64,000 bases of DNA from Clostridia bacterium. GTDB taxonomy: Bacteria > Bacillota > Clostridia > TANB77 > CAG-508. The position numbers and the translations under genes are program-made. The notes beneath the pieces were generated by a model. The model was not told the DNA's origin. It saw only the letters and a list, made by a program, of their open reading frames with translations, and did not search any database. Position 1 is the stretch's first letter, and every line of letters begins with the position of its first letter. Positions 9,050 through 63,354 of the stretch are shown piece by piece. The stretch lies in contig CAAGKK010000044.1 of assembly GCA_900770385.1 (NCBI GenBank), forward strand, positions 23,149 through 87,148, given 5' to 3'.

Positions 9050-9126
9050 AACTAAAAACAAATTTTGCTTTGTTAGAAAATAATAGATAAAGAAATACTG
9101 AATTGAAATTAAGGAGGAATAAAATT

Positions 9127-10128
9127 ATGGCAGTGACTTTTGAAAGTTATGAAAGAAGAATTGACCAAATAAAACCAGTAATGGAAAAATACGGAATAAA
9201 AGATTTTGAAGATGCATTAAAAATATGTACAGATAAAGGATTTAATCCTTATGAAATAGTAAAAGGAGTTCAACCAATATGCTTTGATAATGCTGCATGG
9301 GCATATACATTAGGAGCAGCTATAGCAATTAAAAAAGGTTGTACAAAAGCTCATGAAGCAGCTAAAGCAATAGGAGAAGGATTACAATCTTTCTGCATAC
9401 CAGGTTCTGTTGCAGATGATAGAAAAGTAGGATTAGGACATGGAAATTTAGCATCAATGCTTTTATCTGAAGAAACAAAATGCTTTGCATTCTTAGCAGG
9501 ACATGAAAGCTTTGCAGCAGCAGAAGGAGCAATAGGAATTGCAAAATCTGCAAACAAAGTTAGAAAAGAGCCATTAAGAGTTATATTAAATGGTTTAGGA
9601 AAAGATGCAGCACAAGTAATATCAAGAATAAATGGATTTACATATGTAAAAACAGACTTTGATTTCTTTACAGGAAAAGTTAAAGTTGTAGAAGAAATAC
9701 CTTACTCAGATGGAGAAAGAAGTAAAGTAAGATGCTATGGAGCTAACGATGTTAGAGAAGGTGTAGCAATAATGTGGTTAGAAGATGTTGATGTTTCTAT
9801 AACAGGTAACTCAACAAACCCAACAAGATTCCAACATCCAGTAGCAGGAACATACAAAAAAGAAAGACTAGAAGCAGGTAAAAAATACTTCTCAGTAGCA
9901 TCAGGTGGTGGAACAGGTAGAACACTACACCCAGACAATATGGCAGCAGGACCAGCTTCATATGGTATGACAGATACAATGGGAAGAATGCACTCAGATG
10001 CACAATTTGCAGGAAGTTCTTCAGTACCAGCACACGTAGAAATGATGGGATTAATTGGAATGGGTAACAACCCAATGGTAGGTGCAACAGTTGCTGTTGC
10101 AGTTGCTGTAGAAGAAGCAATGAAATAA
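9127..10128 (+). CDS. GGGtGRT-motif protein (conserved, function unknown)
   Basis: Signature SGGGTGRTLHPDNMAAGPASYGMTDTMGRMH; AAGGAGGA SD before ATG 9127. Confidence 0.8.
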   Translation: MAVTFESYERRIDQIKPVMEKYGIKDFEDALKICTDKGFNPYEIVKGVQPICFDNAAWAYTLGAAIAIKKGCTKAHEAAKAIGEGLQSFCIPGSVADDRKVGLGHGNLASMLLSEETKCFAFLAGHESFAAAEGAIGIAKSANKVRKEPLRVILNGLGKDAAQVISRINGFTYVKTDFDFFTGKVKVVEEIPYSDGERSKVRCYGANDVREGVAIMWLEDVDVSITGNSTNPTRFQHPVAGTYKKERLEAGKKYFSVASGGGTGRTLHPDNMAAGPASYGMTDTMGRMHSDAQFAGSSSVPAHVEMMGLIGMGNNPMVGATVAVAVAVEEAMK

Positions 10129-11479: not shown

Positions 11480-12523
11480 ATGTCTTTAAATGAAAAATAT
11501 AAAAAAGACTATATAACAGAAATTCATACTATTCGTCCTTTTCGGGGAAGAAAAGTTATGGATCCAAACAAAGAACAGGGAAGCTTAGGAATAATCCGGC
11601 TCGACAAGCTTTCATATCCAAGTGATATGAAAATTGACATCAATGGAATAGAAATCAATCCAATTGCATATGACACCTATGGACATCCCATAGTAAGTGC
11701 AAGTAACTTTGATTACTATAAGGCATTAAAAAGAAATTCGGACAGAAGATCTGACACTTTTTTAACGAAAGTGACTTATCGCCCGAAGCCTTTTTGTGTA
11801 AAACGAGCCATATATGACTCGGAAGATGCAATAAAGAAAGCAGCAATCATTGATGAAAAAAAAGAAAGAGGTTTAAAAGACCTCAAAGAACTGTTAATTT
11901 ATAGGAAGCAAGCAGCTTTTTGTAAATTAAACTTAGACACATATTTGCTTTATGGCAAATATATATTGTCAAATAATGGACATGTATATTGGGCTAAGAA
12001 TATTAAAAGTACTAAATTTTTAGAATCAGTTGTTGCCCAAATAAAAGATGAAGAACTCATTTCCAAGGGAGAAGAAGTTCATGTTCCAGATGAAGGCGAT
12101 GTATGCGCTGTGTGTGGCAAATCTTTTATTCTTAATGATGTAAAAGAAGGATTTGTTTCTGAGAACGAAAAGTTCGAAAAGATACACGAAATGTGTCATT
12201 ACAATTTTACACTTGAAGTTAACCAAAAAAACGCTTCTGCTATTGTAGATTCGGTTTATGAAGGAAATCCAGAAGTTAAAATTGTAAAAGAATGGGACGA
12301 AGAAGATCAAACAGAAAAGGTTTGGTATGTATATGAGACATATCAAGGTACAATAGCAATACGGTTTAAGCGTAAAGTTATTGTAATTAAATGGTTTGAT
12401 AACTTTAAACCATTTAATATAGCACTCTTTGAAGCAGAAAGAGTAACCAAATTCGACAGAGGTATACATGCATGGTCAAAAGACGATGCAATCAGATATC
12501 TCGAAATGGCTAAAAAAGCATAA
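11480..12523 (+). CDS. Hypothetical protein (347 aa) with CxxC...HxxCH putative zinc site
   Basis: AAGGAGAG SD; own promoter and terminator; CAVCGK...HEMCH; visibly more G/C-rich codons than its neighbours; no family recognised. Confidence 0.6.
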   Translation: MSLNEKYKKDYITEIHTIRPFRGRKVMDPNKEQGSLGIIRLDKLSYPSDMKIDINGIEINPIAYDTYGHPIVSASNFDYYKALKRNSDRRSDTFLTKVTYRPKPFCVKRAIYDSEDAIKKAAIIDEKKERGLKDLKELLIYRKQAAFCKLNLDTYLLYGKYILSNNGHVYWAKNIKSTKFLESVVAQIKDEELISKGEEVHVPDEGDVCAVCGKSFILNDVKEGFVSENEKFEKIHEMCHYNFTLEVNQKNASAIVDSVYEGNPEVKIVKEWDEEDQTEKVWYVYETYQGTIAIRFKRKVIVIKWFDNFKPFNIALFEAERVTKFDRGIHAWSKDDAIRYLEMAKKA

Positions 12524-13864: not shown

Positions 13865-13940
13865 TGGGGTATCGCCAAGCGGTAAGGCATCGGACTCTGA
13901 CTCCGACATTTCCTGTGTTCGAATCACAGTACCCCAGCCA
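13865..13940 (+). tRNA. tRNA-Gln (anticodon CUG), CCA encoded
   Basis: Acceptor TGGGGTA/TACCCCA; anticodon stem TCGGA/TCCGA with loop CTCTGAC (anticodon CTG); T-arm CTGTG-TTCGAAT-CACAG; 3' GCCA. Confidence 0.9.
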
Positions 13941-14213: not shown

Positions 14214-15092
14214 ATGTCTAAAAAGAAAAATATAAAAATAGAATTACCAATAGATGAAATAGTAGAAAAATGGGAGCAGGGTACTACACAACAAGAACTT
14301 GCAAAAGAATATAGACTCTCTATAAGAACTATTAATAGAAGAATATCTGAATATTATGAAAAGGAAGGAAAACAAAAACCAAAACGAAAAATAGAAATAC
14401 CAATAGATGAAATAGTAAAGAAATGGGAACAAGGTGTTATAGAAAAAGAACTTGCGAAAGAGTATGGAGTTTCACAAACTACTATTAATAACAGAATATC
14501 TGAATATTACAAAAGGGAAGGAAAACAAAGACCTAAAAAAGAATTGAACCCAAAAATAGAATTACCAATAGAAGAAATAGTAGAGAAATGGAAGCAAGGT
14601 ACCATACAACAAGAACTTGCAAAAGAATATGGAGTTTCAACAACTACCATTACTAAAAGAATAGCAGAATATTACGAAAAAAAAGGAAATAAAAAAACAA
14701 AACCTAAAATAAAATCAAAACAAAAAATAGAGTTATCAATAGATGAAATAGTAAAAAAATGGGAAGAAGGTAGTACACAAACAGAACTTGCAAAAGAATA
14801 TGGTATTTCGTTAACCACTATTAGTAGCAGAATATCTGAATACAATAGAGAAAAAGAAATAAAAACAAAATTACTCAATTATGAAAGTGCCGAAAATAAT
14901 GGAAAGAAATTAAAAATTATGAGAAGTTCATCAATCATTGCAGAGTATTTAAGAAAAGGATTAACAATAGAACAGATAAAAAATATTGCACTAGAAAGAA
15001 ATATTATAATACCACAAAAAGTTATTGAAAAAGCAATTCAAAGAAATGAACAACTAGAAAAAAATAAAGAAGAAGAATCAAGTGAGAGATAA
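14214..15092 (+). CDS. Protein with four tandem helix-turn-helix modules (putative DNA-binding)
   Basis: Four 51-57 aa repeats IE(L/I)PI(D/E)EIV(E/K)KW(E/K)(Q/E)G...ELAKEYG(V/I)S..TI..RI(S/A)EY followed by Lys-rich linkers. Confidence 0.75.
   Translation: MSKKKNIKIELPIDEIVEKWEQGTTQQELAKEYRLSIRTINRRISEYYEKEGKQKPKRKIEIPIDEIVKKWEQGVIEKELAKEYGVSQTTINNRISEYYKREGKQRPKKELNPKIELPIEEIVEKWKQGTIQQELAKEYGVSTTTITKRIAEYYEKKGNKKTKPKIKSKQKIELSIDEIVKKWEEGSTQTELAKEYGISLTTISSRISEYNREKEIKTKLLNYESAENNGKKLKIMRSSSIIAEYLRKGLTIEQIKNIALERNIIIPQKVIEKAIQRNEQLEKNKEEESSER
14238..14858 (+). repeat. Intragenic tandem repeat, 4 units of ~153-171 bp
   Basis: Units start at 14238, 14391, 14556 and 14727. Confidence 0.8.
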
Positions 15093-15167: not shown

Positions 15168-17300
15168 ATGAAGATACAAAAAACAGAATTAGATTATTTC
15201 GATTTTTCATTAGAACCAGGATTAAATATAAATAAAAGAATTAGTAAATTTATAGGAAATACTTATGTCTCTGTTGTTACATATTATACAGGAGATGAAC
15301 ATATTAAACAAACATATATATCTTTGCTAAATCAAACTTTTCCTCATTGGGAATGGATAATTGCTACAAGCAAATCAGATGATAGAATAAAAGAACTAAA
15401 AAAGTTAGATAAGAGAATAAAAATAATAGAAATAGAAGAAGAAAGACTTGCAAAAGCACAATATGTTGCTGCTGAAAAGGCAAATAGCGATATATTATTA
15501 TTGTTGCCAGAAAATGATTTGATAGATAAAACCATGATTGAGTGTGGATATTTTACTATGATTACTAATCCAGAAGGTGTATGGGCATATTCGAGAATGG
15601 TTGATTTTGATAAAAAGAAGGTTTTATATAATAAGAAACTTTCAATTTATGAAATGACTAAAGAAAATATAATTTCTAAATGTGCTTTTATAAAAAAAGA
15701 GAAATTCTTAGAGCTAGATGAGTACATGAATTTACCAATGGAAGTAGATGAAGATTGGTATATGTGGTTGTCATTCTTAAGCAAACAATATATACCAATA
15801 AAAATGGACTTTTATGGATATTGGCATAGAAAAGTAATGAAGGAAAAGAATGTTGTATATCATGATAACAAGGAAAACTCAGTAATATCTAAGAAATATA
15901 TAGATAAAGTAAAAAAAGAAATAAAGTATGATACTAGTATCATACAATTTGATAAAATATATCAAATTGATTTCAAAGACATTCCAACTAAAATAGAAAT
16001 ATCAAAGAAGAGTATATTAGAAACAGAAAATAAAAAAAGAATACTAATAATTTTTCCTTGTTTTGTTGTTGGAGGAGCAGATATTTTTACACTAAATTTA
16101 ATAAAAGGACTAAGGAACAAAGGATATGAAATTAGTGTGATTACAACTAAAAAGTGCAATTATGTGTTAAGACAAGAAGTAGAGAAAAATGTAGACGAAT
16201 ATTTTGACTTAACAACATTTTTAAAAGAAAAAGACTGGGCAAGTTTTATATATCATATTATAAAATCAAGAGATATACAGTGCGTATTTTTATCAAACAG
16301 CTTTTATGGGTATTATGCACTACCATGGTTAAAATATCATTTTAAGAAAGTGCCATTTGTAGATTATATACATGCAGAAAACTGGACATTAAGAAACGGA
16401 GGATTTCCAAAAGATTCTAATTCAGTAGCAAATTATTTAGATGCAACATTTACATGTACAAAGCATTTAAAAGAAATGATGTATACTATTATGAATAGAA
16501 GTATAAAAAATATAAAAACAGTATATATAGGAACAGATACTACATTTTATGATAATAGTATAAAATATGATGGAGAAGAAGAACTAATTAAAAAATATGA
16601 AAATGTAAAAACCATACTATTTATAGGAAGAATAGTACATTATAAAAGACCATTGTTTGCAATAGAAGTATTAAAAAGAATATTAGCCAAAAGAAAAGAT
16701 GTAAGACTAATTGTAGTTGGAGATGGGGCTGCTTTTGAAGATTTAAAAGCAAAAGTAGCAAAAGAAAATTTGGAAGAGTATGTGCATTTGTATGGAATGC
16801 AAGATGATGTAAGAAAGTTTTATAAAGTGGCAGATGTTACATTAGTATGTTCTCTAAGAGAAGGATTAACTCTTACAACATATGAATCTTTGTCAATGGG
16901 AGTTCCTGTTGTTTCATGTGATATAGGAGGACAAAAAGAAATAATAGAAAAAGATTGTGGTTATTTAATAAGACCATATCAATTACCAGAGCAACAATTT
17001 GATTTTAATTTTGATGAAGAAGAAATAAAAGAATATGAAGAAGCAATTATTAAAATACTAGATAATAAAGAATGTATTGACTATAAAAATATTTGCAGAC
17101 AAAAAGTTATAAATAGATTTTCAATAACTAAAATGATTAATAACTTAGATAAAGAAATTTCAAAATTAATACAAACAGGTTCAACAATAAAAGAAGAAGA
17201 GTGCAATAATATAGAATTTGCTGAAAGATACTTATTAATTAACGGAATGGTAGAAAATTTAAATAGAACTATTGAAACAAAAAACAAAATAAAAAAATAA
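15168..17300 (+). CDS. Bifunctional glycosyltransferase (N-terminal GT2-like, C-terminal GT4/GT1-like)
   Basis: VSVVTYYTGDEHIKQTYISLLNQTFPHWEWIIA (GT2-like); GRIVHYKRP...VVGDG...REGLTLTTYESLSMGVPVVSCDIGG (GT4 E-x7-E region). Confidence 0.8.
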   Translation: MKIQKTELDYFDFSLEPGLNINKRISKFIGNTYVSVVTYYTGDEHIKQTYISLLNQTFPHWEWIIATSKSDDRIKELKKLDKRIKIIEIEEERLAKAQYVAAEKANSDILLLLPENDLIDKTMIECGYFTMITNPEGVWAYSRMVDFDKKKVLYNKKLSIYEMTKENIISKCAFIKKEKFLELDEYMNLPMEVDEDWYMWLSFLSKQYIPIKMDFYGYWHRKVMKEKNVVYHDNKENSVISKKYIDKVKKEIKYDTSIIQFDKIYQIDFKDIPTKIEISKKSILETENKKRILIIFPCFVVGGADIFTLNLIKGLRNKGYEISVITTKKCNYVLRQEVEKNVDEYFDLTTFLKEKDWASFIYHIIKSRDIQCVFLSNSFYGYYALPWLKYHFKKVPFVDYIHAENWTLRNGGFPKDSNSVANYLDATFTCTKHLKEMMYTIMNRSIKNIKTVYIGTDTTFYDNSIKYDGEEELIKKYENVKTILFIGRIVHYKRPLFAIEVLKRILAKRKDVRLIVVGDGAAFEDLKAKVAKENLEEYVHLYGMQDDVRKFYKVADVTLVCSLREGLTLTTYESLSMGVPVVSCDIGGQKEIIEKDCGYLIRPYQLPEQQFDFNFDEEEIKEYEEAIIKILDNKECIDYKNICRQKVINRFSITKMINNLDKEISKLIQTGSTIKEEECNNIEFAERYLLINGMVENLNRTIETKNKIKK

Positions 17301-20755: not shown

Positions 20756-21700
20756 ATGGAAAGTGTTATTTATCTAAAATTAATAAAAAATGAAGAAGAT
20801 ATATTTGCTGAAGATTCTAAATTACCTAGTTTATTAAAGAAGATAATATTAAAATATAAGTTGATTTTCAAAATAGCTACAATGGTTAGTACTAATAATT
20901 ATAATATTATGATATTACCATTTAGAAGAATAGATGAAAATAAAATAGAAAAATATTTAAGAAAACAAATAAAGAATAGTAAAATAAATAACACTACAAG
21001 ATTAGTATTAGAAAATAATTTAAAAACAAAAACTGTAGTTAAGCTACTTGAAGATAATGGCATATATTATTTTAAAGGAGAACTAATAAAGAAAATATTA
21101 CTGCCAGAGACATTAAAATATATAAATAAATTACAAAAGAAAGAGCTATTAAAAAGAGAAGTTACTATTTTAGTAAATGATAATAATAAGTTAAATAATT
21201 GGGTTATAAAATACATAGCACAAAATAGCAAAATTACTAAAATTGTAAGCAATAAAATATATAAGTTTAAAGAATTAGAAAATGAACTATATGAAAATCA
21301 TGGAATAGCAGTGCAATTTTCAAATAGTTATCAAAAAAGTTTAGCAAAATCTGATATAATAATAAATTTAGATTTTACACAATTTGAACTAAATGAGTAT
21401 GTAATAAATAATAAAGCAATTGTAATTAATTGCAGTGATAGAGTTATAAAAGCAATTTCAAAACTTTTTAATGGAATAATAATAAATTCTTATAGAATAA
21501 AATTTCCAAAAGAAATAAACAATATATTTGAAAATTCCAAATTGTTAAATGAATATGAAAATATAATATTGTATGAAAGTATTATAAATTGGCACAATAT
21601 TAATTGTGCTGAAATTAGAGGAAAAATAGATAAAGACAAAATAATTATTTCAAAATTAATAGGAATTAATGGGGCAATCAACAAAATAGAATTTAGATAA
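20756..21700 (+). CDS. Hypothetical protein (314 aa, Asn/Lys/Ile-rich)
   Basis: Long ORF in the gene-dense direction; no SD at the tracked ATG (which abuts the terminator), so the start is uncertain; no family recognised. Confidence 0.5.
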   Translation: MESVIYLKLIKNEEDIFAEDSKLPSLLKKIILKYKLIFKIATMVSTNNYNIMILPFRRIDENKIEKYLRKQIKNSKINNTTRLVLENNLKTKTVVKLLEDNGIYYFKGELIKKILLPETLKYINKLQKKELLKREVTILVNDNNKLNNWVIKYIAQNSKITKIVSNKIYKFKELENELYENHGIAVQFSNSYQKSLAKSDIIINLDFTQFELNEYVINNKAIVINCSDRVIKAISKLFNGIIINSYRIKFPKEINNIFENSKLLNEYENIILYESIINWHNINCAEIRGKIDKDKIIISKLIGINGAINKIEFR

Positions 21701-23043: not shown

Positions 23044-24429
23044 ATGGGAGGAATAATATTGAAAACAACAAAAAAAAGATTAAAACTAGCATTATTAATT
23101 TTAATTTGTATGGCAATCATTTTGGTAGGTTTTTGTGGAATATATGTAAAAGATAAAAACAAATATTCAAACAAAATACCTAACTATAAATTAGCAACAG
23201 ATTTAAAAGGAACAACAGTATTAGAACTAGATGTAGATACTTCAACAAATAAAAATTACTATGATTCAGAAGGAAAAAAAGTTGATTCTTCTGAAGTAAC
23301 AGATGAGAATAAAAGTAATTATACTGAAAAAGAAGAAAAAGTAAATTTAGATGAGAATCTAACTAAAGATAATTATGAAAAAACTTTAAATATATTAAAA
23401 GAAAGATTAAAATTCTTAAAAGTAGATCAATATAGTTTAGATTTAGATACCAAAACAGGAAAAATTGTTTTAAACTTTGCAGATGAATATCCAGATGATG
23501 TAAAGTCTATTTTGCCAATGGAAGGAAAGCTTGAATTAATAGATTCAAACACAAAAGATGTTTTAATAGAAAATTCTAGTATAAAATCATTAGAAACTAC
23601 ATATGCATCAACAGACGATGGATACACGGTATACTTAAATCTAAAATTAAACAAAGAAGGAATAGACAAAATTAATGGCATAGATGGATACAAAACTACA
23701 ACAGACGATAATGGGGAAGTATCAACAAACAAGCTTAAAGTACAATTTGATACAGACGAAATAGCAGAAGTATCTTATGATAATATGGAATTAATAGGAA
23801 AAACATTAAGAGTTACATTAGCAAGTAATATAACATCAAATTCAACATTTACTTCCAAAATGAACACTGCTACTGTAGTTTCTAAATTAACTACAATAGG
23901 AAAAACACCATTAGTATATAAAATAACAGCAGAAGAATATTTAAAAACAAATGTAGATACTAAAGTGGTTTATGGAGCATTAATTGTAACAGCAGTATTA
24001 TTAGTTGCTACATTTATTACATGGATCATTAAATATAAGATGAACGGATTACTAGCTGTAATAGGAACTCTTACCAATATATCTTTAATGACAATCGTAA
24101 TTAGATATACTAATATAGAAATATCATTAAACTCATTATCAGCAATTATAGGATTATTTGTAGTAAACACATATTTAGTAAGTAATATACTAACACATAT
24201 TAAAAATGAAGAAAAAACATTTGCAGAAAATATACAACATGCATATTTAAAATCAATAGATGTATTAATAATAAGTTTATTAATGTTTGTTGTATTTGCA
24301 TTTAGTAAGATGACAGTAATCAATTCTATGGGATTATTATTCTTCTGGGGATGGTTAACAATTGTTCTAGGAAATTTATTATTTACGGTTCCTATGTTAT
24401 ATGTAAAAAGTAGGGAGGTAAGCAAATAA
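23044..24429 (+). CDS. SecD-like membrane protein (divergent)
   Basis: N-terminal TM, large periplasmic-type domain (ATDLKGTTVLELDVD), C-terminal 5-6 TM bundle; probable TTG start at 23059 after GGGAGGA. Confidence 0.5.
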   Translation: MGGIILKTTKKRLKLALLILICMAIILVGFCGIYVKDKNKYSNKIPNYKLATDLKGTTVLELDVDTSTNKNYYDSEGKKVDSSEVTDENKSNYTEKEEKVNLDENLTKDNYEKTLNILKERLKFLKVDQYSLDLDTKTGKIVLNFADEYPDDVKSILPMEGKLELIDSNTKDVLIENSSIKSLETTYASTDDGYTVYLNLKLNKEGIDKINGIDGYKTTTDDNGEVSTNKLKVQFDTDEIAEVSYDNMELIGKTLRVTLASNITSNSTFTSKMNTATVVSKLTTIGKTPLVYKITAEEYLKTNVDTKVVYGALIVTAVLLVATFITWIIKYKMNGLLAVIGTLTNISLMTIVIRYTNIEISLNSLSAIIGLFVVNTYLVSNILTHIKNEEKTFAENIQHAYLKSIDVLIISLLMFVVFAFSKMTVINSMGLLFFWGWLTIVLGNLLFTVPMLYVKSREVSK

Positions 24430-25061
24430 TGAAAAAAATAACAGAAAACAAAAAAATATTGATTATTGCAATATTAATTATAATAGTAGCAGGTATAATA
24501 TTTTTAGCAGTTAAAGGATTTAACAAAGGTATTATTTATGACTCTGCAACAAGAATAGAATGCTATATACCATCAGGATATGAAAAAGCAGATATAGAAA
24601 ATATTACAAATGAAACTTTTAGTAATAAAAATGTAACAGTGCAAGACATTGAAAAGTTAAACCAAATGGTTTCAATAAAAATAAAAGATTATAGTGAAGA
24701 AGAGTTAGAAAACTTTAAAACAAAAATTTCTGAAAAATATGGAATAGACAAAGACAAATTAGAAATATATGAAATAAAAATACCTACAACTAGAATTAGT
24801 ACAATAGTAAAACCTTATGTATTACCAGTAAGTATTGTAACAGTGTTATCTTTAGTTTATATTGCATTAAGAAATATAAAAAGTAAAGAGGCTGTAAAGA
24901 AAGTTATAAAAGTTGCATTAACATTAGTATTAGTAGCTGGTATATACTTTAGTATATTAGTAATAGCTCAAATACCAATTAATGAATATACAATGCCAAT
25001 AGCTTTAATGTTGTATGTACTAACTTTATTAATTGAAGTAATAAAACTAAATAAAGAATAA
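24429..25061 (+). CDS. SecF-like membrane protein (short, divergent)
   Basis: Start overlaps the upstream stop (ATAATG); N-terminal TM, small extracytoplasmic domain and ~3 C-terminal TM; only 210 aa. Confidence 0.4.
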   Translation: MKKITENKKILIIAILIIIVAGIIFLAVKGFNKGIIYDSATRIECYIPSGYEKADIENITNETFSNKNVTVQDIEKLNQMVSIKIKDYSEEELENFKTKISEKYGIDKDKLEIYEIKIPTTRISTIVKPYVLPVSIVTVLSLVYIALRNIKSKEAVKKVIKVALTLVLVAGIYFSILVIAQIPINEYTMPIALMLYVLTLLIEVIKLNKE

Positions 25062-47289: not shown

Positions 47290-47790
47290 ATGTTTTACCC
47301 AAGAGATTATTTTAAAAGTGTAACTCAAATTACTAAAAAATATTTAGATGAAAATAGAATTCAAGCAATAATTCTAGATGTAGATAATACTTTAATTGAC
47401 TATGATAAAAATCTATCTCAAGAAATAATAAGCTGGGCTAACACCTTAAAAGATAGTGGGATTAAAATGGTTATATTGTCTAATAGCAATAAAAAAGAAA
47501 AAGTAAGACATGTAGCAGAAAAATTAAACATAGAATATCTATTCTTTGGAATGAAACCATTAAAAAGAGGTTTTAAAAAAGCAAAAAAAATATTACAAAT
47601 AGAAGAAAATAATAAAATTGCAGTAGTTGGGGACCAGATTTTTACTGATATTATAGGTGCAAATAGAATGAAAATGTATTCAATTCTAGTAGAACCAATA
47701 GAAAAGAGAGATATTTGGATTACTGTTTTAAAAAGACCAATAGAAAACTATATAAAAGATAAATATCTAAAAACAAAAGGAGGCAAATAA
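47290..47790 (+). CDS. yqeG: YqeG-family HAD phosphatase
   Basis: AIILDVDNTL, VILSNSN, VGDQIFTDI; tracked ORF starts at 47272. Confidence 0.85.
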   Translation: MFYPRDYFKSVTQITKKYLDENRIQAIILDVDNTLIDYDKNLSQEIISWANTLKDSGIKMVILSNSNKKEKVRHVAEKLNIEYLFFGMKPLKRGFKKAKKILQIEENNKIAVVGDQIFTDIIGANRMKMYSILVEPIEKRDIWITVLKRPIENYIKDKYLKTKGGK

Positions 47791-48539
47791 TGTACTTTCA
47801 TGATGTACACATACTAATATATGTAGCAATAGCTATACTAGGCTTTATTTTAGGTAAGTTTATAAATTATTGTAATTATAAATTTTTAAATGAAGAAAAA
47901 ATAATAAGCAAAGATTTATTTAGTAAAGAAAAAAAATACAAAAATAATATAATATTACCATTAATTAATGCAGTTATTTATATAATACTACTTTATACAT
48001 TTGGAATAGGAAAAAGCTATCTAGATAATATAGAACTTATAAGATATTTATGTTTAACTCCTATGCTTTTGTCAGTATTCATAATTGATTATAAAAAACA
48101 AATTATCCCTAATAGATTAAATTTAACAATGTTTGAAATAGGCTTAATATTATTATTTGCAGTAGGCATATTTAATGCAAATATTGCAATAGATATGTTT
48201 TTAGGAATGTTAGTTGGTGGTGGAATATTCCTATTAATTACGCTTCTTGGTGGCTTAATTGCAGGAAAAGAAGCAATGGGATTTGGTGATGTAAAGTTAA
48301 TGGCTGCATTAGGCTTATATTTTGGTGTTGCAAATATAATTATGATTACTTTGATTTCTTTTCTATTAGGGGCAATAATTAGCATTATACTATTAGTAAC
48401 TAAAATAAAGAAAACTAGTGAATATATACCATTTGGTCCATTTATAGTAATGGCAACTTTTATAATGATGGTTGTTCCATTTGAAGTGGCATTTTCAATA
48501 TTAGTTACTATATTTTCGTTAGGATTAATGAGAGTATAA
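47790..48539 (+). CDS. Type IV prepilin peptidase (A24 family)
   Basis: Polytopic membrane protein; GKEAMGFGDVKLMAALGLYFG and IPFGPF motifs; start overlaps the yqeG stop. Confidence 0.85.
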   Translation: MYFHDVHILIYVAIAILGFILGKFINYCNYKFLNEEKIISKDLFSKEKKYKNNIILPLINAVIYIILLYTFGIGKSYLDNIELIRYLCLTPMLLSVFIIDYKKQIIPNRLNLTMFEIGLILLFAVGIFNANIAIDMFLGMLVGGGIFLLITLLGGLIAGKEAMGFGDVKLMAALGLYFGVANIIMITLISFLLGAIISIILLVTKIKKTSEYIPFGPFIVMATFIMMVVPFEVAFSILVTIFSLGLMRV

Positions 48540-49664: not shown

Positions 49665-50510
49665 TTATTTTATTCTTAGAAATTTATAATTATCTAAGTT
49701 ATTTATTTCTTTAGTAATATAACCATCTTCATAAATAGAAGAATTATCATTTTCAAAAGGGATTTCAAAACCAACATTACAAATATAGTACTCATTAGCA
49801 TCATTTATTATATTTATATCAAAAGAAACATTAGCTTTAATACTTCTCATAGGAATGCTTGCTCGTTTTAAAATCTTTCCGCTATATTCTATTTGTTGTT
49901 CTGAATATAAGAAATTTGTTTTTACATCTTTATTATAAAATCCTAGTATTAAAGGACTAGATAAATTTTTATCTATAGAATTATTTGAATTATTAATATT
50001 AGCAATATCAGACTCTATGTTAAAATAAAAATTATCATTTATTTTATTCTCGTCTGAGTATGAAGACCTACCAAAATCGGTTTTGGATTTTTTATATAAA
50101 CAAGGTGTACCATATTCTGTAGGAGTAATAGAAATATTATTTATATAAAATTCTTTAACAGTATTTTTATTGCTATTTGAATTAGGAGAATTGTTTAAAT
50201 ATATTGCAATATCAGTATATTGAGATATATTTAAATTCCATACGGCATTATTTAATTCTTTAGCATCTACAGTAGCAGAGGAAAATAAAACGATTTTATT
50301 TAAAGAAAATACTGTTTCATCGTTTAAAGACGAGATTTTTGTATACTCTTTTTCAAAGTTTCCCTTAATAAATATATTACGAATAAAATAAAGATATATA
50401 AAAATAAATATAATTAACAAAATACTTAGAAAATAAATTATTCTAAGTGTTTTCTTATTTAAATTTTTTAAGTTTATTTTATTTCTTTTTCTAGTATTAG
50501 TTCTTCTCAT
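49665..50510 (-). CDS. Hypothetical membrane-anchored protein (281 aa)
   Basis: Basic N-terminus plus one TM, then an Asn/Ser-rich extracytoplasmic part; no family recognised. Confidence 0.55.
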   Translation of the reverse strand: MRRTNTRKRNKINLKNLNKKTLRIIYFLSILLIIFIFIYLYFIRNIFIKGNFEKEYTKISSLNDETVFSLNKIVLFSSATVDAKELNNAVWNLNISQYTDIAIYLNNSPNSNSNKNTVKEFYINNISITPTEYGTPCLYKKSKTDFGRSSYSDENKINDNFYFNIESDIANINNSNNSIDKNLSSPLILGFYNKDVKTNFLYSEQQIEYSGKILKRASIPMRSIKANVSFDINIINDANEYYICNVGFEIPFENDNSSIYEDGYITKEINNLDNYKFLRIK

Positions 50511-52017: not shown

Positions 52018-53844
<1,827 letters not shown>

Positions 53845-57930: not shown

Positions 57931-58080
57931 AAATAAGGCAAACTTTTATGTTTGCTTTATTTTTTGTGCTAATATTCTTTTAAAAAAATATTTCAAAAAA
58001 AACTTGTTTTTTTATATGTTCTAGTGTATGATATTGTAAGATATGATTAGTATACGGAAATAGCGAAAGGAGAAAGATAT

Positions 58081-58482
58081 ATGAAAAAAGTTGTAGCAAT
58101 TATTTTTATTTTAATTTGTATATTTTCAATATCTACAATTTATGCTACTAATAATAATCAAATTATGAATAATGAAACGGAAAATCAATTAGTACAAATA
58201 AAAGATAAAGAATTAAAAAGTTTAGAAGACTATAAACAAGCATATGGTTCAGAAAGCTATGGTTTAACAGCATATCTTTTGGGAAAAATAAGAATATATA
58301 GTATACCATTTTGCTTTATAGGAATTGCTGTTGGAGCAATATATCAATATGTAATAGGTATAAGGAAAATCGATATTAGAGACAGAGGATTTGCACTATG
58401 CATTGCCTTTGTTACAATTTTCGTGATATGTCAGGTATTACCGCTAATATTTGCTATTGTAGTAAAAAGTTGGAGGGGTTAA
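58081..58482 (+). CDS. Small membrane protein (signal/anchor plus 2 TM)
   Basis: AAAGGAG SD; 133 aa; 3 nt before the next gene. Confidence 0.6.
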   Translation: MKKVVAIIFILICIFSISTIYATNNNQIMNNETENQLVQIKDKELKSLEDYKQAYGSESYGLTAYLLGKIRIYSIPFCFIGIAVGAIYQYVIGIRKIDIRDRGFALCIAFVTIFVICQVLPLIFAIVVKSWRG

Positions 58483-58485
58483 CAA

Positions 58486-60870
58486 ATGAAAGTTTTATTT
58501 GCTGTTAGTAATGAAAATATATCTACACAAATAGTAAAAAGATATCAAAAAGAATATAAAGAAATAATATCATATAAGAATATGTATTATTTTAATGCTG
58601 TTGTAAAAGAACTTCAAAGAGATAAATCTTACGACAGAATAGTTATAGGAGAAGATCTAGAACCATTTTCTAATAATAACTATGATGCTATAGATAAATT
58701 TATATTTGATAAATTAGACAGTATTAGTGATGAAGCAACAGGTAGTGAAGGAGATATTCCAATTATTTTAATATGCGCAGATAGAAGAGCAAAAGCAGAT
58801 CCAATGTTAGTAAAATTATTTGGATTAGGAATATATAATGCGCTATTAGGACCAGATAAAAGTATAGAAAATGTATGCAAGATGATTAACAGACCTCGTA
58901 GCAAAAAAGAAGCTAAAATTTATTATAAAATAGATTCAGATGAAGTTAATTATCAAAGTGAAAATGAAGATACTGTTAGTGAAGTAGAAATAAAAAATAT
59001 ATTAGCTCATTATAAGAGATTGGGAAAAAATGAAGATAGATATGTAGAAAGCTTTAATAATATTGCTGCACAATATAATGATGCACAATTAAGAATTATA
59101 ACAAAATTCTTACCATTAAATGTAAAAGCAGTTTTAGAAGAGCAATCTCCTAAATATCAATCAGTTATGACATTTGGAGATACTGCTTCAGCTATAAACA
59201 GCAGTATGAATCAACAAAAGAAAAAAGATGAAGGTTTAAAAATGGGCTTCTTAAATACTAATAGTGGAAGACCAACTAGACCAGTAATTGTGCCAACAGC
59301 TGTTAATAAAGCAGGAAGAAAAATAGGAACATCTGCAGTTCAACAACAGCAACCTCAAGTTCAAAGAACAATAAATCAAAATTCTTATCAAACTGGTAAC
59401 AATTATTCACCAGCAAGACCTGCTCAAATGCCAAGAATGCCGGAACCTGAAATTGCACCAGTTATGCCAGAACCTGAAGAAGATTTTGAAACAGTAGAAA
59501 TGAATACACCTTCTGTACCAGTTGTAGAAGAAGTACAACCAGTAAAAAGAGGAAGGGGTAGACCTAAGAAAAATGTAGAGCCTATTGAACAAATTGAAAA
59601 CAAACCAAAAAGAGGAAGAGGTAGACCTAAAAAAGTAGTAGAAGAACCAGTGTTACCAGGCTTTGACGAAGACGAAGAACCAACACTACCAGGTTTTGAA
59701 GATCAAAATGAAGAACCAACATTGCCAGGTTTTGATGTATCAAACAGCGAACCAACTTTACCAGGTTTCGATGAACCAGAAGAAGAAATGACTTTACCAG
59801 GATTTGATAATGTTCAAGAAAAACAAGATACTATGTTACCAGGCTTTGATACACCACAAACAATGTCAAATAATAATGTTAACCAATATTCAAGACCAGA
59901 GCCAAGTGGAACAATGTCAAGTTATGGATCAACAAATTCACTTTCTAACTATTCTAATAGCTCTAGTAATTCATACTATTCAAATTCTAGTATGAGTGCA
60001 ACAAATCTATTATCAAAAGATAAGAAAGTTGTAGCATTTGTTGGAACTACTAAAAATGGAACATCATTCTTAGTAAATAATTTAGGAAAAACATGTGCTA
60101 GTATGGGAATAAAAACGGCTATATTAGACTTAACCACAAATAGAAACTCATATTATATATTTACAAATAATGATGAAAAATTAAGAGGAATAGCATATGA
60201 ATCTATAAAAAAACTAAGAAGCGGTATAGCAAGTGGAATAGCAGCAGATAAAAACTTAGATGTATATACAGCTTTACCAGATGATAGAAATGTTCCTTTA
60301 CAAGATGTTAATGGAATATTATCAACTTTAATTCAAAATTATTCTTTAGTGTTAATGGATTGCGATTTCTCAACACCAGTAGAATATTTTGGAGCAACTC
60401 AAGAAATTTATATAGTACAAAGTTTAGATATTCTTACAATACAACCAATGACAGCATTTTTAAGGGATTTAAAGAGTAAAGAGATATTAAGAGAAGAAAA
60501 AATAAGGGTTATTATTAATAAAGAAGTAAGAGTAAGAGGATTAACACCAAAAGCAATAATTGGTGGACTAGCATTTTATAATGATCCATCAATGTCATTT
60601 ATGACAGAATTATTTAATAAAGATAATGTAAAATACTGTACAGTGCCTTTTGATGAAATAACATATATAAAATATTTGGAAAATGTTATGGACTGCGAAA
60701 TATCAACAAATGGATATTCTAGAGAATTTAATATGAAGATGAAAGAGTTAGCAAGCATGGTATATCCTTTAATTGGAAATAAGTATAAGCCAGTTGGAGA
60801 CTATTCTTCTAATAATAGGTTCTCTTCTAATATGAATAGTACATTGGAACAAATGAAAAGAAATTATTAA
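58486..60870 (+). CDS. Receiver-like N-domain, AT-hooks (x2), LPGF(D/E) motifs (x6), Ser/Asn-rich linker and atypical ParA/MinD (TadZ/CpaE-like) domain
   Basis: MKVLFAVSNE...DRIVIGEDLEP...IPIILICA (CheY-like layout); KRGRGRPKK twice; KVVAFVGTTKNGTSFLVNNLG atypical P-loop; LVLMDCDF Walker-B-like. Confidence 0.7.
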   Translation: MKVLFAVSNENISTQIVKRYQKEYKEIISYKNMYYFNAVVKELQRDKSYDRIVIGEDLEPFSNNNYDAIDKFIFDKLDSISDEATGSEGDIPIILICADRRAKADPMLVKLFGLGIYNALLGPDKSIENVCKMINRPRSKKEAKIYYKIDSDEVNYQSENEDTVSEVEIKNILAHYKRLGKNEDRYVESFNNIAAQYNDAQLRIITKFLPLNVKAVLEEQSPKYQSVMTFGDTASAINSSMNQQKKKDEGLKMGFLNTNSGRPTRPVIVPTAVNKAGRKIGTSAVQQQQPQVQRTINQNSYQTGNNYSPARPAQMPRMPEPEIAPVMPEPEEDFETVEMNTPSVPVVEEVQPVKRGRGRPKKNVEPIEQIENKPKRGRGRPKKVVEEPVLPGFDEDEEPTLPGFEDQNEEPTLPGFDVSNSEPTLPGFDEPEEEMTLPGFDNVQEKQDTMLPGFDTPQTMSNNNVNQYSRPEPSGTMSSYGSTNSLSNYSNSSSNSYYSNSSMSATNLLSKDKKVVAFVGTTKNGTSFLVNNLGKTCASMGIKTAILDLTTNRNSYYIFTNNDEKLRGIAYESIKKLRSGIASGIAADKNLDVYTALPDDRNVPLQDVNGILSTLIQNYSLVLMDCDFSTPVEYFGATQEIYIVQSLDILTIQPMTAFLRDLKSKEILREEKIRVIINKEVRVRGLTPKAIIGGLAFYNDPSMSFMTELFNKDNVKYCTVPFDEITYIKYLENVMDCEISTNGYSREFNMKMKELASMVYPLIGNKYKPVGDYSSNNRFSSNMNSTLEQMKRNY
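59650..59850 (+). repeat. Six short-motif repeats encoding (E)P(T/V/M)LPGF(D/E) in an acidic linker
   Basis: TTACCAGG(C/T/A)TT(T/C)GA recurs at 59653, 59686, 59722, 59758, 59794 and 59836. Confidence 0.9.
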
Positions 60871-60900
60871 TACAAAAAAAAGAGGTGAAAATTCTAAAAA

Positions 60901-62019
60901 ATGGGCATGATAATAATAATAGTAATACTTGTTATGATAGTTCTAGCATTACTTGCTTATAATGTTGTCATTCATAAAAAAATAGAAGGTTTCGAAAATA
61001 CTAATCAAAGAATTCAGAGCTTAAATGTATTGCAAGAATTTATGAGTACAATAGGAGAAGAAGAAACAGTAGATAACAAAATAACAAAGATTAATAATAT
61101 CTTAATAGAAAAATACGACATAAAATATTCAACTATAGTAGTTTTTGATGGAGCAGAATATGTAATAAAAGCAACCAATGTAAACGAAAAACACTGGGAT
61201 ACTATGAGAAATCTTCAATCAGAAGAAATATTTCAAGACAGCATTATGTCAGCTACGCCTAAATCTATAACGGTAGATAATGAGCAAGAAAAATTACCAT
61301 ACCAAAAAGTAGAATTTGGAAGAGCAAAATCAGCAATATTCTTCCCTTTGTATATTGATAATATTTATATTGGATATTGGATTATAGAAAGTGGAATACC
61401 ACATGCTTTTGATAAATTAGATACAACTATATTAGAAGTTGTAAAAGAAAATATTATATCTGTTTTAAAATCAGTTGCATATCAATCAACAGTAGAAAGT
61501 TTACCAAGAAAGGATTTATACTCAGAATTAACAACAGGTGAGTATTTATATGGAAAAGGTAAGAGAATTATAGATAAATATCCAACATCTACAATATGTA
61601 TGTTTAGAATTACAAATTTAGAGGAAATAAATAAAACAACTAATAGAGAAACTGGAAATAATGTTATAACAAGTGTAAGTAGATATGTAAGAGAAAGTAT
61701 ATCTTCAGAATATTTATTTGTAAGATATATGGGACCTAAATTTGTAATAGCATTTTCAGGAGTAGATGTTGATGGATCAACAGGATTTTTACAAGACTTA
61801 AAAAATGGAATAGAAAACTTAAAAATAAATGTTGAAGGTTTAGAAGAAACAAAACCAACCAAGAAATCAAAAAAGACAACAATAACAGAAGTTATTCCAA
61901 AAATTAATATAGTAGTAACTACATATTATAAAGGAACAGCATTAGAAAGTGTAACTCAAAAATTAGAAGAATACTTAGATAATGCGCCAAAAGAAGAAAA
62001 TGATATTAATGAAATTTAA
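60901..62019 (+). CDS. Membrane-anchored GAF-like protein with degenerate GGDEF domain
   Basis: N-terminal TM; the C-terminal region aligns to the GGDEF layout (RKDLYSELT..., [37 protein letters not shown]) with GGDEF replaced by MGPKF. Confidence 0.6.
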
Positions 62020-62033
62020 AGGAGGTTTTGAAT

Positions 62034-62288
62034 ATGGATTTTGATAAAACAATGAACTTTACAGTAGAAAGAGATAAAAGCATAAAGGCTAGAGAAATAT
62101 TAAAAAAAGTGTACAATGCTTTACAAGAAAAGGGATATAATCCTATAAACCAAATAGTAGGATATATTTTATCTGGCGATCCTACATATATTACAAGCTA
62201 TAATGATGCAAGAAATTTAATAAGACAAATAGAAAGAGATGAATTACTAGAAAAAATGGTAAGAAATTATATTGGACTAGACGAATAA
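62034..62288 (+). CDS. ireB: IreB-family regulatory phosphoprotein (UPF0297)
   Basis: [45 protein letters not shown]. Confidence 0.88.
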
Positions 62289-62348
62289 ATGCTTTTTTGA
62301 GTACTTGTATTTAACTAGTTTAAATATAATATGAAAAGGAATTAAATT

Positions 62349-62762
62349 ATGAGAACAATGGGAATTGATTATGGAGATAGCAGAGTAGGAATAGCATTAA
62401 CAGATGCCCTAGGTATAACTGCTCAAGGTTTGGAAACAATACACCATAATGGAAATGATAAAATAGTTCTAAAAAGATTAGAAGAAATAATAAATGAATA
62501 TGAAGTTGATACAATAGTAATAGGAATGCCATACAAATTAAACGGCGATAAAGCAGAAAGAGTAGAAATTACTGAAAAATTTATTCAAAAGTTAAAATGT
62601 AAGTTTAATAAAGTGAAAATAGAAAAAGTAGATGAAAGACTAACTACAGTAGCTGCACATAGAACAATGAATTTTTTAGAAATTAAGAATTCTAAAAAAA
62701 GAAATATAGTCGATACAATATCTGCAGTTTACATATTGGAAAGTTATATGAACAAAAAATAG
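62349..62762 (+). CDS. ruvX: Holliday junction resolvase-like RuvX/YqgF
   Basis: MGIDYGDSRVGIALTD, IVIGMPYKLNG. Confidence 0.9.
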   Translation: MRTMGIDYGDSRVGIALTDALGITAQGLETIHHNGNDKIVLKRLEEIINEYEVDTIVIGMPYKLNGDKAERVEITEKFIQKLKCKFNKVKIEKVDERLTTVAAHRTMNFLEIKNSKKRNIVDTISAVYILESYMNKK

Positions 62763-62817
62763 TTATTAATGTTGTAGAAATACAATTTTTTATAAAAATT
62801 TGAAAGGAGAACTAGAG

Positions 62818-63123
62818 ATGAGTGAAGATATGAACAATGTTCCAGAAAATGAAGAAATGGACAATATCATAGTATTAAATGATGAAGAAGGAAACGAAGT
62901 TGAATTTGAATTCCTTGATTTAATAGAATATGAAGGAGAAGAATATGTAGTATTATTACCAGCAGAAGAAACAGACGATGCTGGAGAGGTAGTTATATTA
63001 CAAGTAGAAGATATTGATACAGATGAAGAATCTTATATAAGTGTAGAAGATGAAGATACATTAAATAAAGTATTTGATATCTTTAAAGATAAATTTAAAG
63101 ACGAATTTAATTTTGTAGACTAA
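62818..63123 (+). CDS. DUF1292 protein
   Basis: IIVLNDEEGNEVEFEFLDLIEYEGEEYVVLLP; AAAGGAG SD before ATG 62818. Confidence 0.85.
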   Translation: MSEDMNNVPENEEMDNIIVLNDEEGNEVEFEFLDLIEYEGEEYVVLLPAEETDDAGEVVILQVEDIDTDEESYISVEDEDTLNKVFDIFKDKFKDEFNFVD

Positions 63124-63135
63124 TAAAAAGAGACA

Positions 63136-63354
63136 TTATGCAATTTTCTGCGTAATGTCTCTTATATATTTTCCTATTTCATTGTCGGACAAACAAAATA
63201 TATTAATTAATTTATTTAAAATATCTCTTCTAGGAAGATCTTCTTCATTATCTATTCTAACATATTGTCTAAGGCTAATATTCAATTTTTCTGCCATTTG
63301 TTCTTGGGTAAACCCAAGATTTTTTCTTTTTTCCTTAATCAAAATTATCACCAT
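63136..63354 (-). CDS. XRE-family HTH transcriptional regulator (72 aa)
   Basis: IKEKRKNLGFTQEQMAEKLNISLRQYVRIDN; divergent from the pilin-like gene. Confidence 0.8.
   Translation of the reverse strand: MVIILIKEKRKNLGFTQEQMAEKLNISLRQYVRIDNEEDLPRRDILNKLINIFCLSDNEIGKYIRDITQKIA

Follow-up and report, generated by a model that had tools for sequence, protein, structure and literature searches.

The 64,000-nucleotide stretch of a Clostridia bacterium genome analysed here (assembly GCA_900770385.1, contig CAAGKK010000044.1; hereafter the window) carries three tightly packed open reading frames (ORFs), all on the + strand, which we call A, B and C. A encodes a small membrane protein, B a single chain in which a pseudo-receiver is joined to AT-hooks, to a repeated short linear motif and to a MinD fold without its lysines, and C a membrane protein with a degenerate GGDEF domain. 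The A–B–C module is specific to a lineage of low-GC gut Clostridia that are uncultured, and has a fixed place in their chromosomes; we are highly confident of its architecture and conservation. An earlier note on this DNA, made from the letters alone, had described the three ORFs, their gaps of 3 nt (A–B) and 30 nt (B–C), a promoter upstream and the lack of an internal terminator; the ORF coordinates, our reading of the sequence and a terminator scan bear out all of these. The features of the locus, all on the + strand, are as follows.

57938–57965 (+): hairpin GCAAAC-ttttat-GTTTGC followed by a T-run, likely a terminator (sequence reading; palindrome also found in the terminator scan)
58005–58033 (+): promoter, TTGTTT (58005–58010), 17-nt spacer, TATGAT (58028–58033) (sequence reading and conservation)
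58081–58482 (+): gene A, 133-residue membrane protein (ORF, transmembrane prediction, homologues)
58486–60870 (+): gene B, 794 residues (ORF)
60901–62019 (+): gene C, 372 residues (ORF)
62028–63123 (+): ireB (62028 or 62035 to 62288), ruvX (62349–62762) and the DUF1292 gene (62800–63123) (ORFs and Pfam)
63128–63163 (+): first hairpin after the cluster that resembles an intrinsic terminator, 15 pairs (terminator scan)

A, B and C each have more than 5,000 database relatives (5229 for A), with at least 6786 for B in a 90%-clustered database. In a 50%-clustered library B is matched by 591 representatives at E ≤ 1e-3, 223 of them at E ≤ 1e-30, and those listed share the same layout of an N-terminal module, a variable linker and a C-terminal domain. 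All named records are metagenome-assembled genomes of uncultured Clostridia or Clostridium, from human gut (Hadza, UMGS, HGM) and rabbit gut. The A, B and C family sequences themselves yielded no source names, the five clusters examined carrying neither a member name nor an accession.

We compared the gene neighbourhood in 18 loci whose B proteins share 28–76% identity. A and B are adjacent in all 18, C is present in 15, and in 17 the gene immediately after B or C is ireB; intergenic gaps are 1–46 nt, except for 77 nt between A and B in locus L013. Eleven genome loci keep the identical order A–B–C–ireB–ruvX–DUF1292 (B at 51–72% identity). Among the distant representatives examined (B at 28–41% identity), the P0317, P0361 and P0300 loci keep A–B–C–ireB–ruvX, those of P0386 and P0355 pass from A–B directly to ireB–ruvX–DUF1292 without C, and that of P0338 (L013) has A–B, again without C, then a terminator and a miaA-like gene. 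The layout of L013, where a strong hairpin (AAAATGCGGAAAAAGATTTTTCCGCATTTT; L013:8284–8330) stands right after B, means that A–B can stand alone as a unit. An HMM (hidden Markov model) built from close A sequences picks out, in each of the distant loci, the small ORF that immediately precedes B (E-values of 1e-26 to 7e-6). A is the invariant partner of B, its neighbour in all 18 loci, a pairing whose universality the earlier note had missed. The functional cluster proposed from the sequence is thus supported by synteny that reaches down to 28–40% identity; of the two membrane partners proposed with it, A holds throughout, whereas C is not universal. Could the three genes nonetheless be unrelated neighbours, their adjacency meaningless? 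Just the general caveat that operons may hold unrelated genes speaks for this, whereas A stays beside B with gaps of 1–77 nt across the whole identity range, C accompanies them in most loci and the upstream flanks vary between lineages. Chance adjacency is effectively refuted by this synteny, and we regard its probability as negligible.

The genes upstream of A include, depending on the lineage, an ABC transporter, a PBP5-type carboxypeptidase, ScpB and radical-SAM genes. The carboxypeptidase (D-Ala-D-Ala type, Peptidase_S11) lies directly upstream of A at L013:4237–5379 and L018:2844–3941, in a C-less or distant clade, and constitutes a second, independent cell-wall neighbour of the A–B module. 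At L014:1254–1643 and L017:4517–4879, the position directly upstream of A is taken by an extra small gene, whose cytoplasmic products of 120–129 residues share 48% identity; neither the window nor the remaining loci contain a homologue. The L014 protein ends in KKIGFFKRIFK, an amphipathic tail resembling the MinD membrane-targeting sequence (hydrophobic moment 0.60). This small gene may add another component to the module in those lineages.

The hairpin at 57938–57965 is likely to be the terminator of the upstream gene, which encodes an FtsX-type ABC permease, and would set the 5′ limit of the A–B–C transcription unit; similar hairpins occur upstream in loci L002 and L004. We considered the upstream ABC transporter as a member of the module and ruled it out, since it is not conserved beside A in relatives and a terminator stands between. 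The promoter was not listed by a consensus scan because its −35 box fits the consensus at just three of six positions. We accept it as real because the block CTTGT[AT]TTTTTT...TAGTGTATGATA shows little or no change across an alignment of nine related upstream regions whose flanks have diverged; the ribosome-binding site (RBS) GGAGAAA upstream of A is likewise kept in this alignment. No riboswitch or leader RNA was found upstream of A, Rfam matching just a tRNA-Gln elsewhere in the window.

At the other end of the cluster, ireB could start at TTG 62028, 8 nt after C, or at ATG 62035, 15 nt after C; the latter, behind an AGGAGG RBS, is the more likely start. IreB, RuvX and DUF1292 are assigned by Pfam with E-values of 4.6e-40, 1.3e-39 and 2.4e-16, respectively. 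From 58081 to 63123 the scan lists nothing terminator-like on the + strand, and the hairpin at 63128–63163 is likely to form the 3′ end of the operon. A–B–C–ireB–ruvX–DUF1292 (58081–63123) is therefore probably a single transcription unit, read from its own conserved promoter. That ireB, ruvX and DUF1292 follow the cluster without a terminator had been seen before, and stands; they had been treated as mere neighbours, though they probably belong to the same operon because B or B–C lies directly upstream of ireB in 17 of the 18 loci with no terminator between. The hairpin at 63128–63163 is bidirectional and shared by the end of the DUF1292 gene with a convergent 72-residue ORF (63136–63354, − strand) that contains an XRE-type helix–turn–helix (HTH)-like sequence, LGFTQEQMAEKLNISLRQYVRIDN.

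Protein A belongs to no Pfam or NCBIfam family. Three transmembrane (TM) segments are predicted: an N-terminal signal or anchor (residues 1–25) is followed by a variable exposed segment and by a conserved two-TM hairpin (residues ~66–132), within which lies the motif QVLPLIFA.

Protein B has no predicted TM segment. Whole or split into its N- and C-terminal domains, it matches nothing significantly in Pfam, NCBIfam, PADLOC or the PDB sequences, and nothing in Pfam and NCBIfam even at E ≤ 10; its best sequence match, obtained with a family profile, is the BY-kinase CapB at E = 0.039. The novelty claimed for the system has thus held, HMM and structure searches having given no characterised orthologue. 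The parts of B, as delimited from AlphaFold2 (AF2) models, Foldseek searches, motif searches and alignments, are as follows.

58486–58890 (+): residues 1–135, receiver-fold (βα)5 pseudo-receiver (AF2, Foldseek, alignment)
58960–59175 (+): residues 159–230, five-helix bundle (AF2, Foldseek)
59176–59994 (+): residues 231–503, predicted disordered linker rich in P/E/S/N (AF2 confidence, pLDDT, below 50; composition)
59545–59571 (+): AT-hook 1, KRGRGRPKK, residues 354–362 (motif search, Pfam, alignment)
59608–59634 (+): AT-hook 2, KRGRGRPKK, residues 375–383 (motif search, Pfam, alignment)
59653–59853 (+): six acidic LPGF[DE] short linear motifs, residues 390–456 (motif search)
59998–60780 (+): residues 505–765, ParA/MinD-fold (SIMIBI) domain (AF2 pLDDT 70–90, Foldseek)
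60037–60069 (+): degenerate Walker A loop FVGTTKNGTSF, residues 518–528 (motif, alignments)
60820–60867 (+): residues 779–794, FSSNMNSTLEQMKRNY, conserved C-terminal amphipathic helix (AF2, hydrophobic moment, alignment)

This division agrees with the three parts given in the earlier note (receiver-like N-domain, linker and ParA/MinD domain); the disordered linker measures about 270 residues. Features that had been missed are the helical bundle, the amphipathic helix at the C-terminus and, in distant members, the KKGLFG tails. In the full-length AF2 model the N-domain has a pLDDT below 50; residues 1–232 were remodelled on 29 diverse family sequences and then reached a mean of 90.8, with about 95 in the receiver part; the five helices of the bundle span residues 166–229 in this model. 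Foldseek against the PDB matches this N-module to VraR (3.3e-4) and the ComE receiver (REC) domain (1e-3), and also to RcsB and NarL. The N-domain of CpaE is recovered as well (4n0p, 2.8e-3, TM-score 0.63–0.70, rmsd 3.3 Å; 4dad, 2e-2), a likeness at the level of the fold. In a viral structure library the best matches are full-length REC+HTH regulators (phage CitB-type, 2.9e-4 and 5.1e-4), and the receiver and bundle together align over the whole length of response regulators of the NarL/VraR/CitB type. In the register given by the secondary structure of the model, β1 ends in S8-N9-E10, and β3 in G/S55, an invariant E56 and a variable residue 57. There is no conserved aspartate at the phospho-acceptor position and no K-P after β5, so the receiver of B is not expected to be phosphorylatable in the canonical way.

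The N-module invites another explanation of B, as a DNA-binding transcription regulator made of a pseudo-response regulator, an HTH-like bundle and AT-hooks, which would autoregulate the ireB operon or control other genes; its MinD-like domain would be a built-in antiactivator or membrane-sequestration switch, like a fused FleQ–FleN, and A and C would sense. The best Foldseek matches of residues 1–232 are indeed full-length REC+HTH proteins, aligned over 235–241 columns, FleN and the FleQ–FleN complex are among the matches of the C-domain, AT-hooks are present, and B lies near the head of an operon open to its control. Yet the rmsd of these full-length alignments is 11–16 Å, and the similarity to REC+HTH regulators is therefore only domain-wise. 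Moreover, Pfam detects no HTH family in B even at E ≤ 10; the helical bundle, in which Q196 and I205 are invariant, is slightly acidic (net charge about −2) with few conserved basic residues, and roughly one family member in three has no AT-hooks. We consider a regulator of this kind quite unlikely.

The linker between the two folded parts ranges from 53 to 859 residues in the family. The two AT-hooks and six LPGF[DE] motifs reported in it were confirmed by motif search, far above chance. The six frames of the 64-kb window together contain just two RGRP, both in B (1.2e-3 expected per 794 residues), and Pfam AT_hook covers the two stretches with an E-value of 0.047, the motif being short. LPGF occurs six times in B, for 3.5e-3 expected, and nowhere else in the roughly 14,500 residues of the other window proteins. 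The KRGRGRPKK core is that of a textbook type-I AT-hook, and AT-hook-like RGR motifs are known in bacteria from CarD, H-NS and Lsr2. The literature searched yielded no publication on this family, none that pairs an AT-hook with a ParA-like protein and none that mentions an LPGF motif in bacteria. Across 59 close homologues of B (56–78% identity), the RGRP cores are invariant in all 59 amid a barely alignable linker, and the LPGF copy number runs from 0 to 9. Both kinds of motif appear to be under selection. At about 27% GC, the value for the window, the genome would offer AT-hooks plentiful AT-rich minor groove, and DNA binding by B is predicted.

In the wider family, 81 full-length representatives divide into 48 with two AT-hooks, three with three, two with one and 28 with none; the linkers of the hook-less members span 53–541 residues and are E/K/R/Q-rich or Pro-rich. 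Since 28 of the 81 lack any AT-hook, nucleoid tethering cannot be the core function of the family, as the earlier note had it; judged from these sequences, DNA tethering would be a feature of a subclade, and only for that subclade would the idea hold. Seven distant homologues (P0347, P0355, P0357, P0358, P0373, P0386 and P0390; alignment A2) have no AT-hooks and carry E/K/R/Q/A-rich, coiled-coil or single-helix-like linkers with a basic GLFG motif on either side: RGLFGILKE just behind the N-module, and KKGLFG where the protein ends. P0355 and P0386 come from loci without C.

The C-terminal domain of B finds 169 PDB chains with Foldseek at E ≤ 1e-3. The top matches lie between 8e-8 (3ea0) and 1e-5, and the matches include BB_S35 from Borrelia, E. 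rectale TadZ, FleN, BcsQ, MinD, Soj and NifH, all at 11–16% identity, as well as ParA, the FleQ–FleN complex and HypB. The atypical loop FVGTTKNGTSF without GK(S/T), also noticed from the sequence, is a family trait: the consensus G-x-x-K-x-G-[TVI]-[ST]-F is found in 79 of 81 representatives and GK[ST] in none. Thr521 takes the place of the signature lysine and Thr526 that of the P-loop lysine; indeed, the family profile sets the B loop on the Walker A of CapB (PGAGKS) with Thr526 over the catalytic lysine. G520, G525, D548, D625 and N678 of the nucleotide site are invariant and S527 is conserved, D548 (after β2) and D625 (in LMDCD) being placed at the Walker A′ and Walker B aspartate positions by strand position, not by superposition. 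Because the glycines, the Ser/Thr, the two aspartates and N678 are kept, the pocket is probably still used, but presumably not as a canonical ATP-sandwich switch.

These kept residues, together with the ParA/MinD fold and the AT-hooks, are what would be expected if B were a functional ATPase of the ParA/MinD type whose ATP-driven gradient segregates the chromosome or a cargo, the AT-hooks replacing the usual non-specific DNA-binding surface. Such a motor is extremely improbable: the signature and P-loop lysines are absent from 81 of 81 representatives, the cluster encodes no ParB-, MinE- or MinC-like activator (Pfam finds no ParB, MinE/MinC or FlhF family in the cluster or the window), and the AT-hooks are not universal.

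Another possibility is that B is a true, very divergent TadZ/CpaE, localizing a Flp/Tad pilus machine whose genes lie at some other place in the genome. The TadZ/CpaE layout had been read from the sequence, and Foldseek recovers both folds, each matching TadZ-family structures (4n0p, 4dad, 3fkq); the P-loop lysine is lost in B as in TadZ, a Peptidase_A24 gene lies 10 kb upstream in the window, and a T2SSE ATPase gene is found about 6 kb upstream in L012. On the other hand, the E. rectale TadZ structure 3fkq (2.3e-6) matches no better than generic ParA, MinD or FleN, and no Pfam or NCBIfam CpaE/TadZ family is matched. The Walker-A-like consensus of TadZ is K/RGGxGxS/T (bioRxiv 10.64898/2026.07.08.737194), of which TTKNGTS in B retains just G-x-S. 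TadZ is furthermore reported exclusively from Tad systems (bioRxiv 10.64898/2026.07.08.737194), yet the fixed neighbours of B are A, C and ireB, and no tadA, tadB/C, flp or rcp gene adjoins the cluster, be it in the window or across the 18 loci. Among the 48 window ORFs annotated with Pfam there are no tad/cpa secretion genes and no T2SSE, T2SSF or Flp, as the earlier note had stated. We therefore hold a TadZ identity of B to be highly improbable. The Peptidase_A24 gene, for a type IV prepilin leader peptidase (47790–48539, + strand; 1.6e-18), is the sole pilus-related gene of the window and is flanked by genes for a HAD phosphatase and an M24 peptidase.

B ends in a helix predicted over residues 781–793, and F779, M783, L787 and M790 of the terminal stretch are conserved. 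The helix has a hydrophobic moment of 0.43, for a protein mean of 0.24 (standard deviation 0.13), and is a candidate membrane- or partner-binding tail. Distant members end instead in KKGLFG, RRGLFG or KFKLFGK, with a second, GLFGILK-like motif just after the N-module. We take the KKGLFG-type tails to resemble the membrane-targeting sequence of E. coli MinD. Such a sequence is an established concept for MinD and FlhG (PMC7439463).

Protein C has one N-terminal TM segment (residues 1–28), a conserved region (~35–200) and a GGDEF domain (~201–365). The degenerate GGDEF domain read from the sequence is secure: Pfam PF00990 is matched at 24.0–26.5 bits (cut-off 23.8) and is precomputed for 119 of the 120 C homologues listed, and the family profile finds DosC in the PDB at 6.8e-11. 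The GAF-like label given to residues 35–200 rests on sequence pattern only and was not confirmed, this region having no match in Pfam or among PDB sequences. The active site is lost, MGPKF (in RYMGPKF) standing for GGDEF and R.T for the metal-binding DxD. No RxxD I-site is conserved in alignment A4, where SSEY occupies that position, five residues upstream of GGDEF. With all three motifs lost, C is by its sequence neither a cyclase nor a recognizable I-site receptor of cyclic di-GMP (c-di-GMP). For the sensory input once suggested for C, a route through c-di-GMP thus finds no sequence support.

A broader form of this idea is a cyclic-dinucleotide effector system, in which C would sense c-di-GMP or another nucleotide and relay it to B, as in BcsE–BcsQ or FleQ–FleN. 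The GGDEF fold is secure, N244, R249, G252, N253, R275 and G278 are invariant in C across 27–86% identity and suggest a conserved pocket, and BcsQ and FleN are structural neighbours of B, with a precedent in PMC7439463. With the I-site, the metal-binding aspartates and the GGDEF motif lost, however, both known modes of binding c-di-GMP or GTP are gone; in addition, C is missing from three loci where A–B persists, and no diguanylate cyclase, phosphodiesterase or PilZ gene was seen among the annotated window ORFs. This reading strikes us as very unlikely.

We instead favour, as the best overall explanation, a membrane scaffold module tied to the envelope control of ireB, which we hold tentatively and rate somewhat below an even chance. 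B would be a static or ligand-gated dimerizing scaffold, as proposed for TadZ, and not an oscillator driven by ATP hydrolysis like MinD or ParA. Its attachment to the membrane would come from A, from an amphipathic tail of its own and, in the loci that have it, from C; there the MinD-fold domain would be the docking site of C's dead GGDEF domain, just as BcsQ is for the degenerate GGDEF of BcsE. In the subclade of the B studied here, whose linker carries two canonical AT-hooks and 2–9 acidic LPGF[DE] motifs, the hooks would add a tether between the complex and the AT-rich chromosome, and the LPGF[DE] motifs, being multivalent, would recruit a client. The module would then spatially organize envelope growth or division relative to the nucleoid. 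IreB/ReoM is a substrate of the PASTA kinase that controls MurA stability and peptidoglycan synthesis (PMC8528326), and it is because the module is probably fused transcriptionally to ireB that envelope growth or division appears to be its likeliest role. Taken by themselves, the parts of this explanation differ in strength: for B as a non-catalytic membrane scaffold the chances seem to us balanced, whereas a role in envelope or division positioning remains doubtful.

Several observations weigh against this explanation. The AT-hooks are lacking in 28 of 81 representatives and C in 3 of 18 loci, so neither can be essential to the core mechanism. The A–B pair of L013 ends in a terminator and a miaA-like gene, and the link to ireB is therefore not obligatory. 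In Firmicutes, operon neighbours are frequently unrelated in function, and we know of no common pathway that would explain why ruvX and DUF1292 accompany ireB. The C-terminal helix of B is just moderately amphipathic (about 1.5 standard deviations above the mean) and polar overall, and A is predicted to leave just a cytoplasmic loop of about ten residues to touch B. Loss of the Walker lysine is no proof of lost nucleotide binding or hydrolysis. Finally, no characterized homologue of A–B–C was found in Pfam, NCBIfam, the PDB or the clusters, and the functional steps are drawn from folds and neighbourhood.

Carried further, the scaffold explanation would make A–B(–C) an unrecognized cell-organizing system: a multivalent hub built on a MinD fold without an ATP switch, anchored to the membrane by A, bound to the nucleoid by AT-hooks and to clients by LPGF[DE] motifs, and wired to the PASTA-kinase/IreB checkpoint, transcriptionally and perhaps also by Ser/Thr phosphorylation of its S/T/N-rich linker. 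Such a Min/Noc-like regulator working on different principles is, in our estimation, unlikely. ParA/MinD proteins are the main spatial organizers of bacterial cells, and their variants without an ATP switch, such as TadZ, are poorly understood. Gut metagenomes from humans, rabbits and other sources hold thousands of sequences of this family. If the scaffold explanation is true, the family would give a handle on envelope, division or nucleoid organization in a major uncultured gut lineage, and would exemplify how a MinD fold can, in nature, become a static, multivalent hub. If it is wrong, the family is still a large unannotated one that merits a domain entry.

The rest of the window is ordinary chromosome, with mreB, a glycolysis block, eno, aspS, greA, mutS2, folD, dprA, nusA, infB, xseA, fhs and cell-wall hydrolases. 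A mobile-element or plasmid-partition origin of the cluster was ruled out, as its surroundings are genes of glycolysis, translation and the cell wall, and their chromosomal synteny is conserved; a defence system was ruled out by the absence of a PADLOC match and by the housekeeping context. A gene for a YezG-like polymorphic-toxin immunity protein (7639–8304, + strand; 1.1e-26), followed by a 236-residue ORF without a Pfam match (to 9049), is inserted between the glycolysis block (gap–pgk–tpi–pgm) and a GGGtGRT-family gene (9103–10128). At 14214–15092 (+ strand), between tRNA-Gln (13865–13940) and a large GT2+GT4 glycosyltransferase gene (15168–17300), a 292-residue protein is encoded that weakly matches 28 HTH Pfam families at several positions each, and looks like four or five HTH units in tandem. 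No Pfam family is matched at E ≤ 1e-5 by the ORFs at 52018–53844 (+, 608 residues), 49665–50510 (−, 281 residues), 23044–25061 (+, 461 and 210 residues), 20756–21700 (+, 314 residues) and 11480–12523 (+, 347 residues).

Among known systems, TadZ/CpaE resembles B in having a non-phosphorylatable receiver followed by a ParA/MinD fold whose P-loop lysine is lost, and is presumed to be a localization scaffold and not a motor. B differs in that its lysine comes two positions later (G-x-x-K-x-G-T-S), in its helical bundle, its disordered linker of some 270 residues with AT-hooks and LPGF[DE] motifs and its C-terminal helix, and in its setting, always beside A and usually beside a dead GGDEF protein and ireB, with no adjacent tad genes. 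The closest mechanistic precedent is BcsE–BcsF–BcsQ(–BcsR) of E. coli-type cellulose secretion, which has the same parts list as A–B–C: a degenerate receiver, a degenerate GGDEF domain, a SIMIBI protein of the MinD/ParA fold with a C-terminal tail, and a short membrane polypeptide. There, BcsE, a degenerate REC–GGDEF protein, binds the MinD-fold BcsQ via its degenerate GGDEF domain, and the short membrane polypeptide BcsF recruits the complex to the membrane (PMC7439463). In A–B–C, by contrast, the degenerate receiver is fused to the MinD-fold protein and the degenerate GGDEF protein is itself membrane-anchored; BcsE binds c-di-GMP by an RxxD motif that C lacks, and BcsQ keeps ATP binding. There is no bcsA, bcsB or other synthase gene near A–B–C, and the likeness is one of folds, with no detectable sequence homology.

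MinD and FlhG (FleN) share with B the fold and may share with its family an amphipathic or basic-hydrophobic C-terminal tail and, if our explanation holds, a role in spatial organization at the membrane; FleN, moreover, pairs with FleQ, a regulator with a degenerate receiver. Unlike them, B lacks both lysines of KGGxxGK[ST], so that an ATP-sandwich dimer and stimulated hydrolysis are unlikely, has no MinC/MinE or FlhF partner, and carries a large N-terminal extension and a disordered linker. Its AT-hooks have the same KRGRGRPKK core as those of eukaryotic HMGA-type proteins, here on a ParA/MinD-fold carrier. Noc, the nucleoid occlusion protein of Bacillus, is a ParB-family CTPase that joins DNA binding at specific sites to a membrane-binding amphipathic element. 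The analogy with it is functional only: B would likewise couple chromosome and membrane, but with a ParA/MinD fold and generic AT-hooks, the latter absent from a third of the family, and with no homology. The parts of A–B–C are thus of known kinds (a degenerate receiver, AT-hooks, a MinD fold and a degenerate GGDEF domain) and their logic resembles that of TadZ and BcsE/F/Q, while the family is new, and neither its architecture nor its partners nor its place in the genome had been described before.

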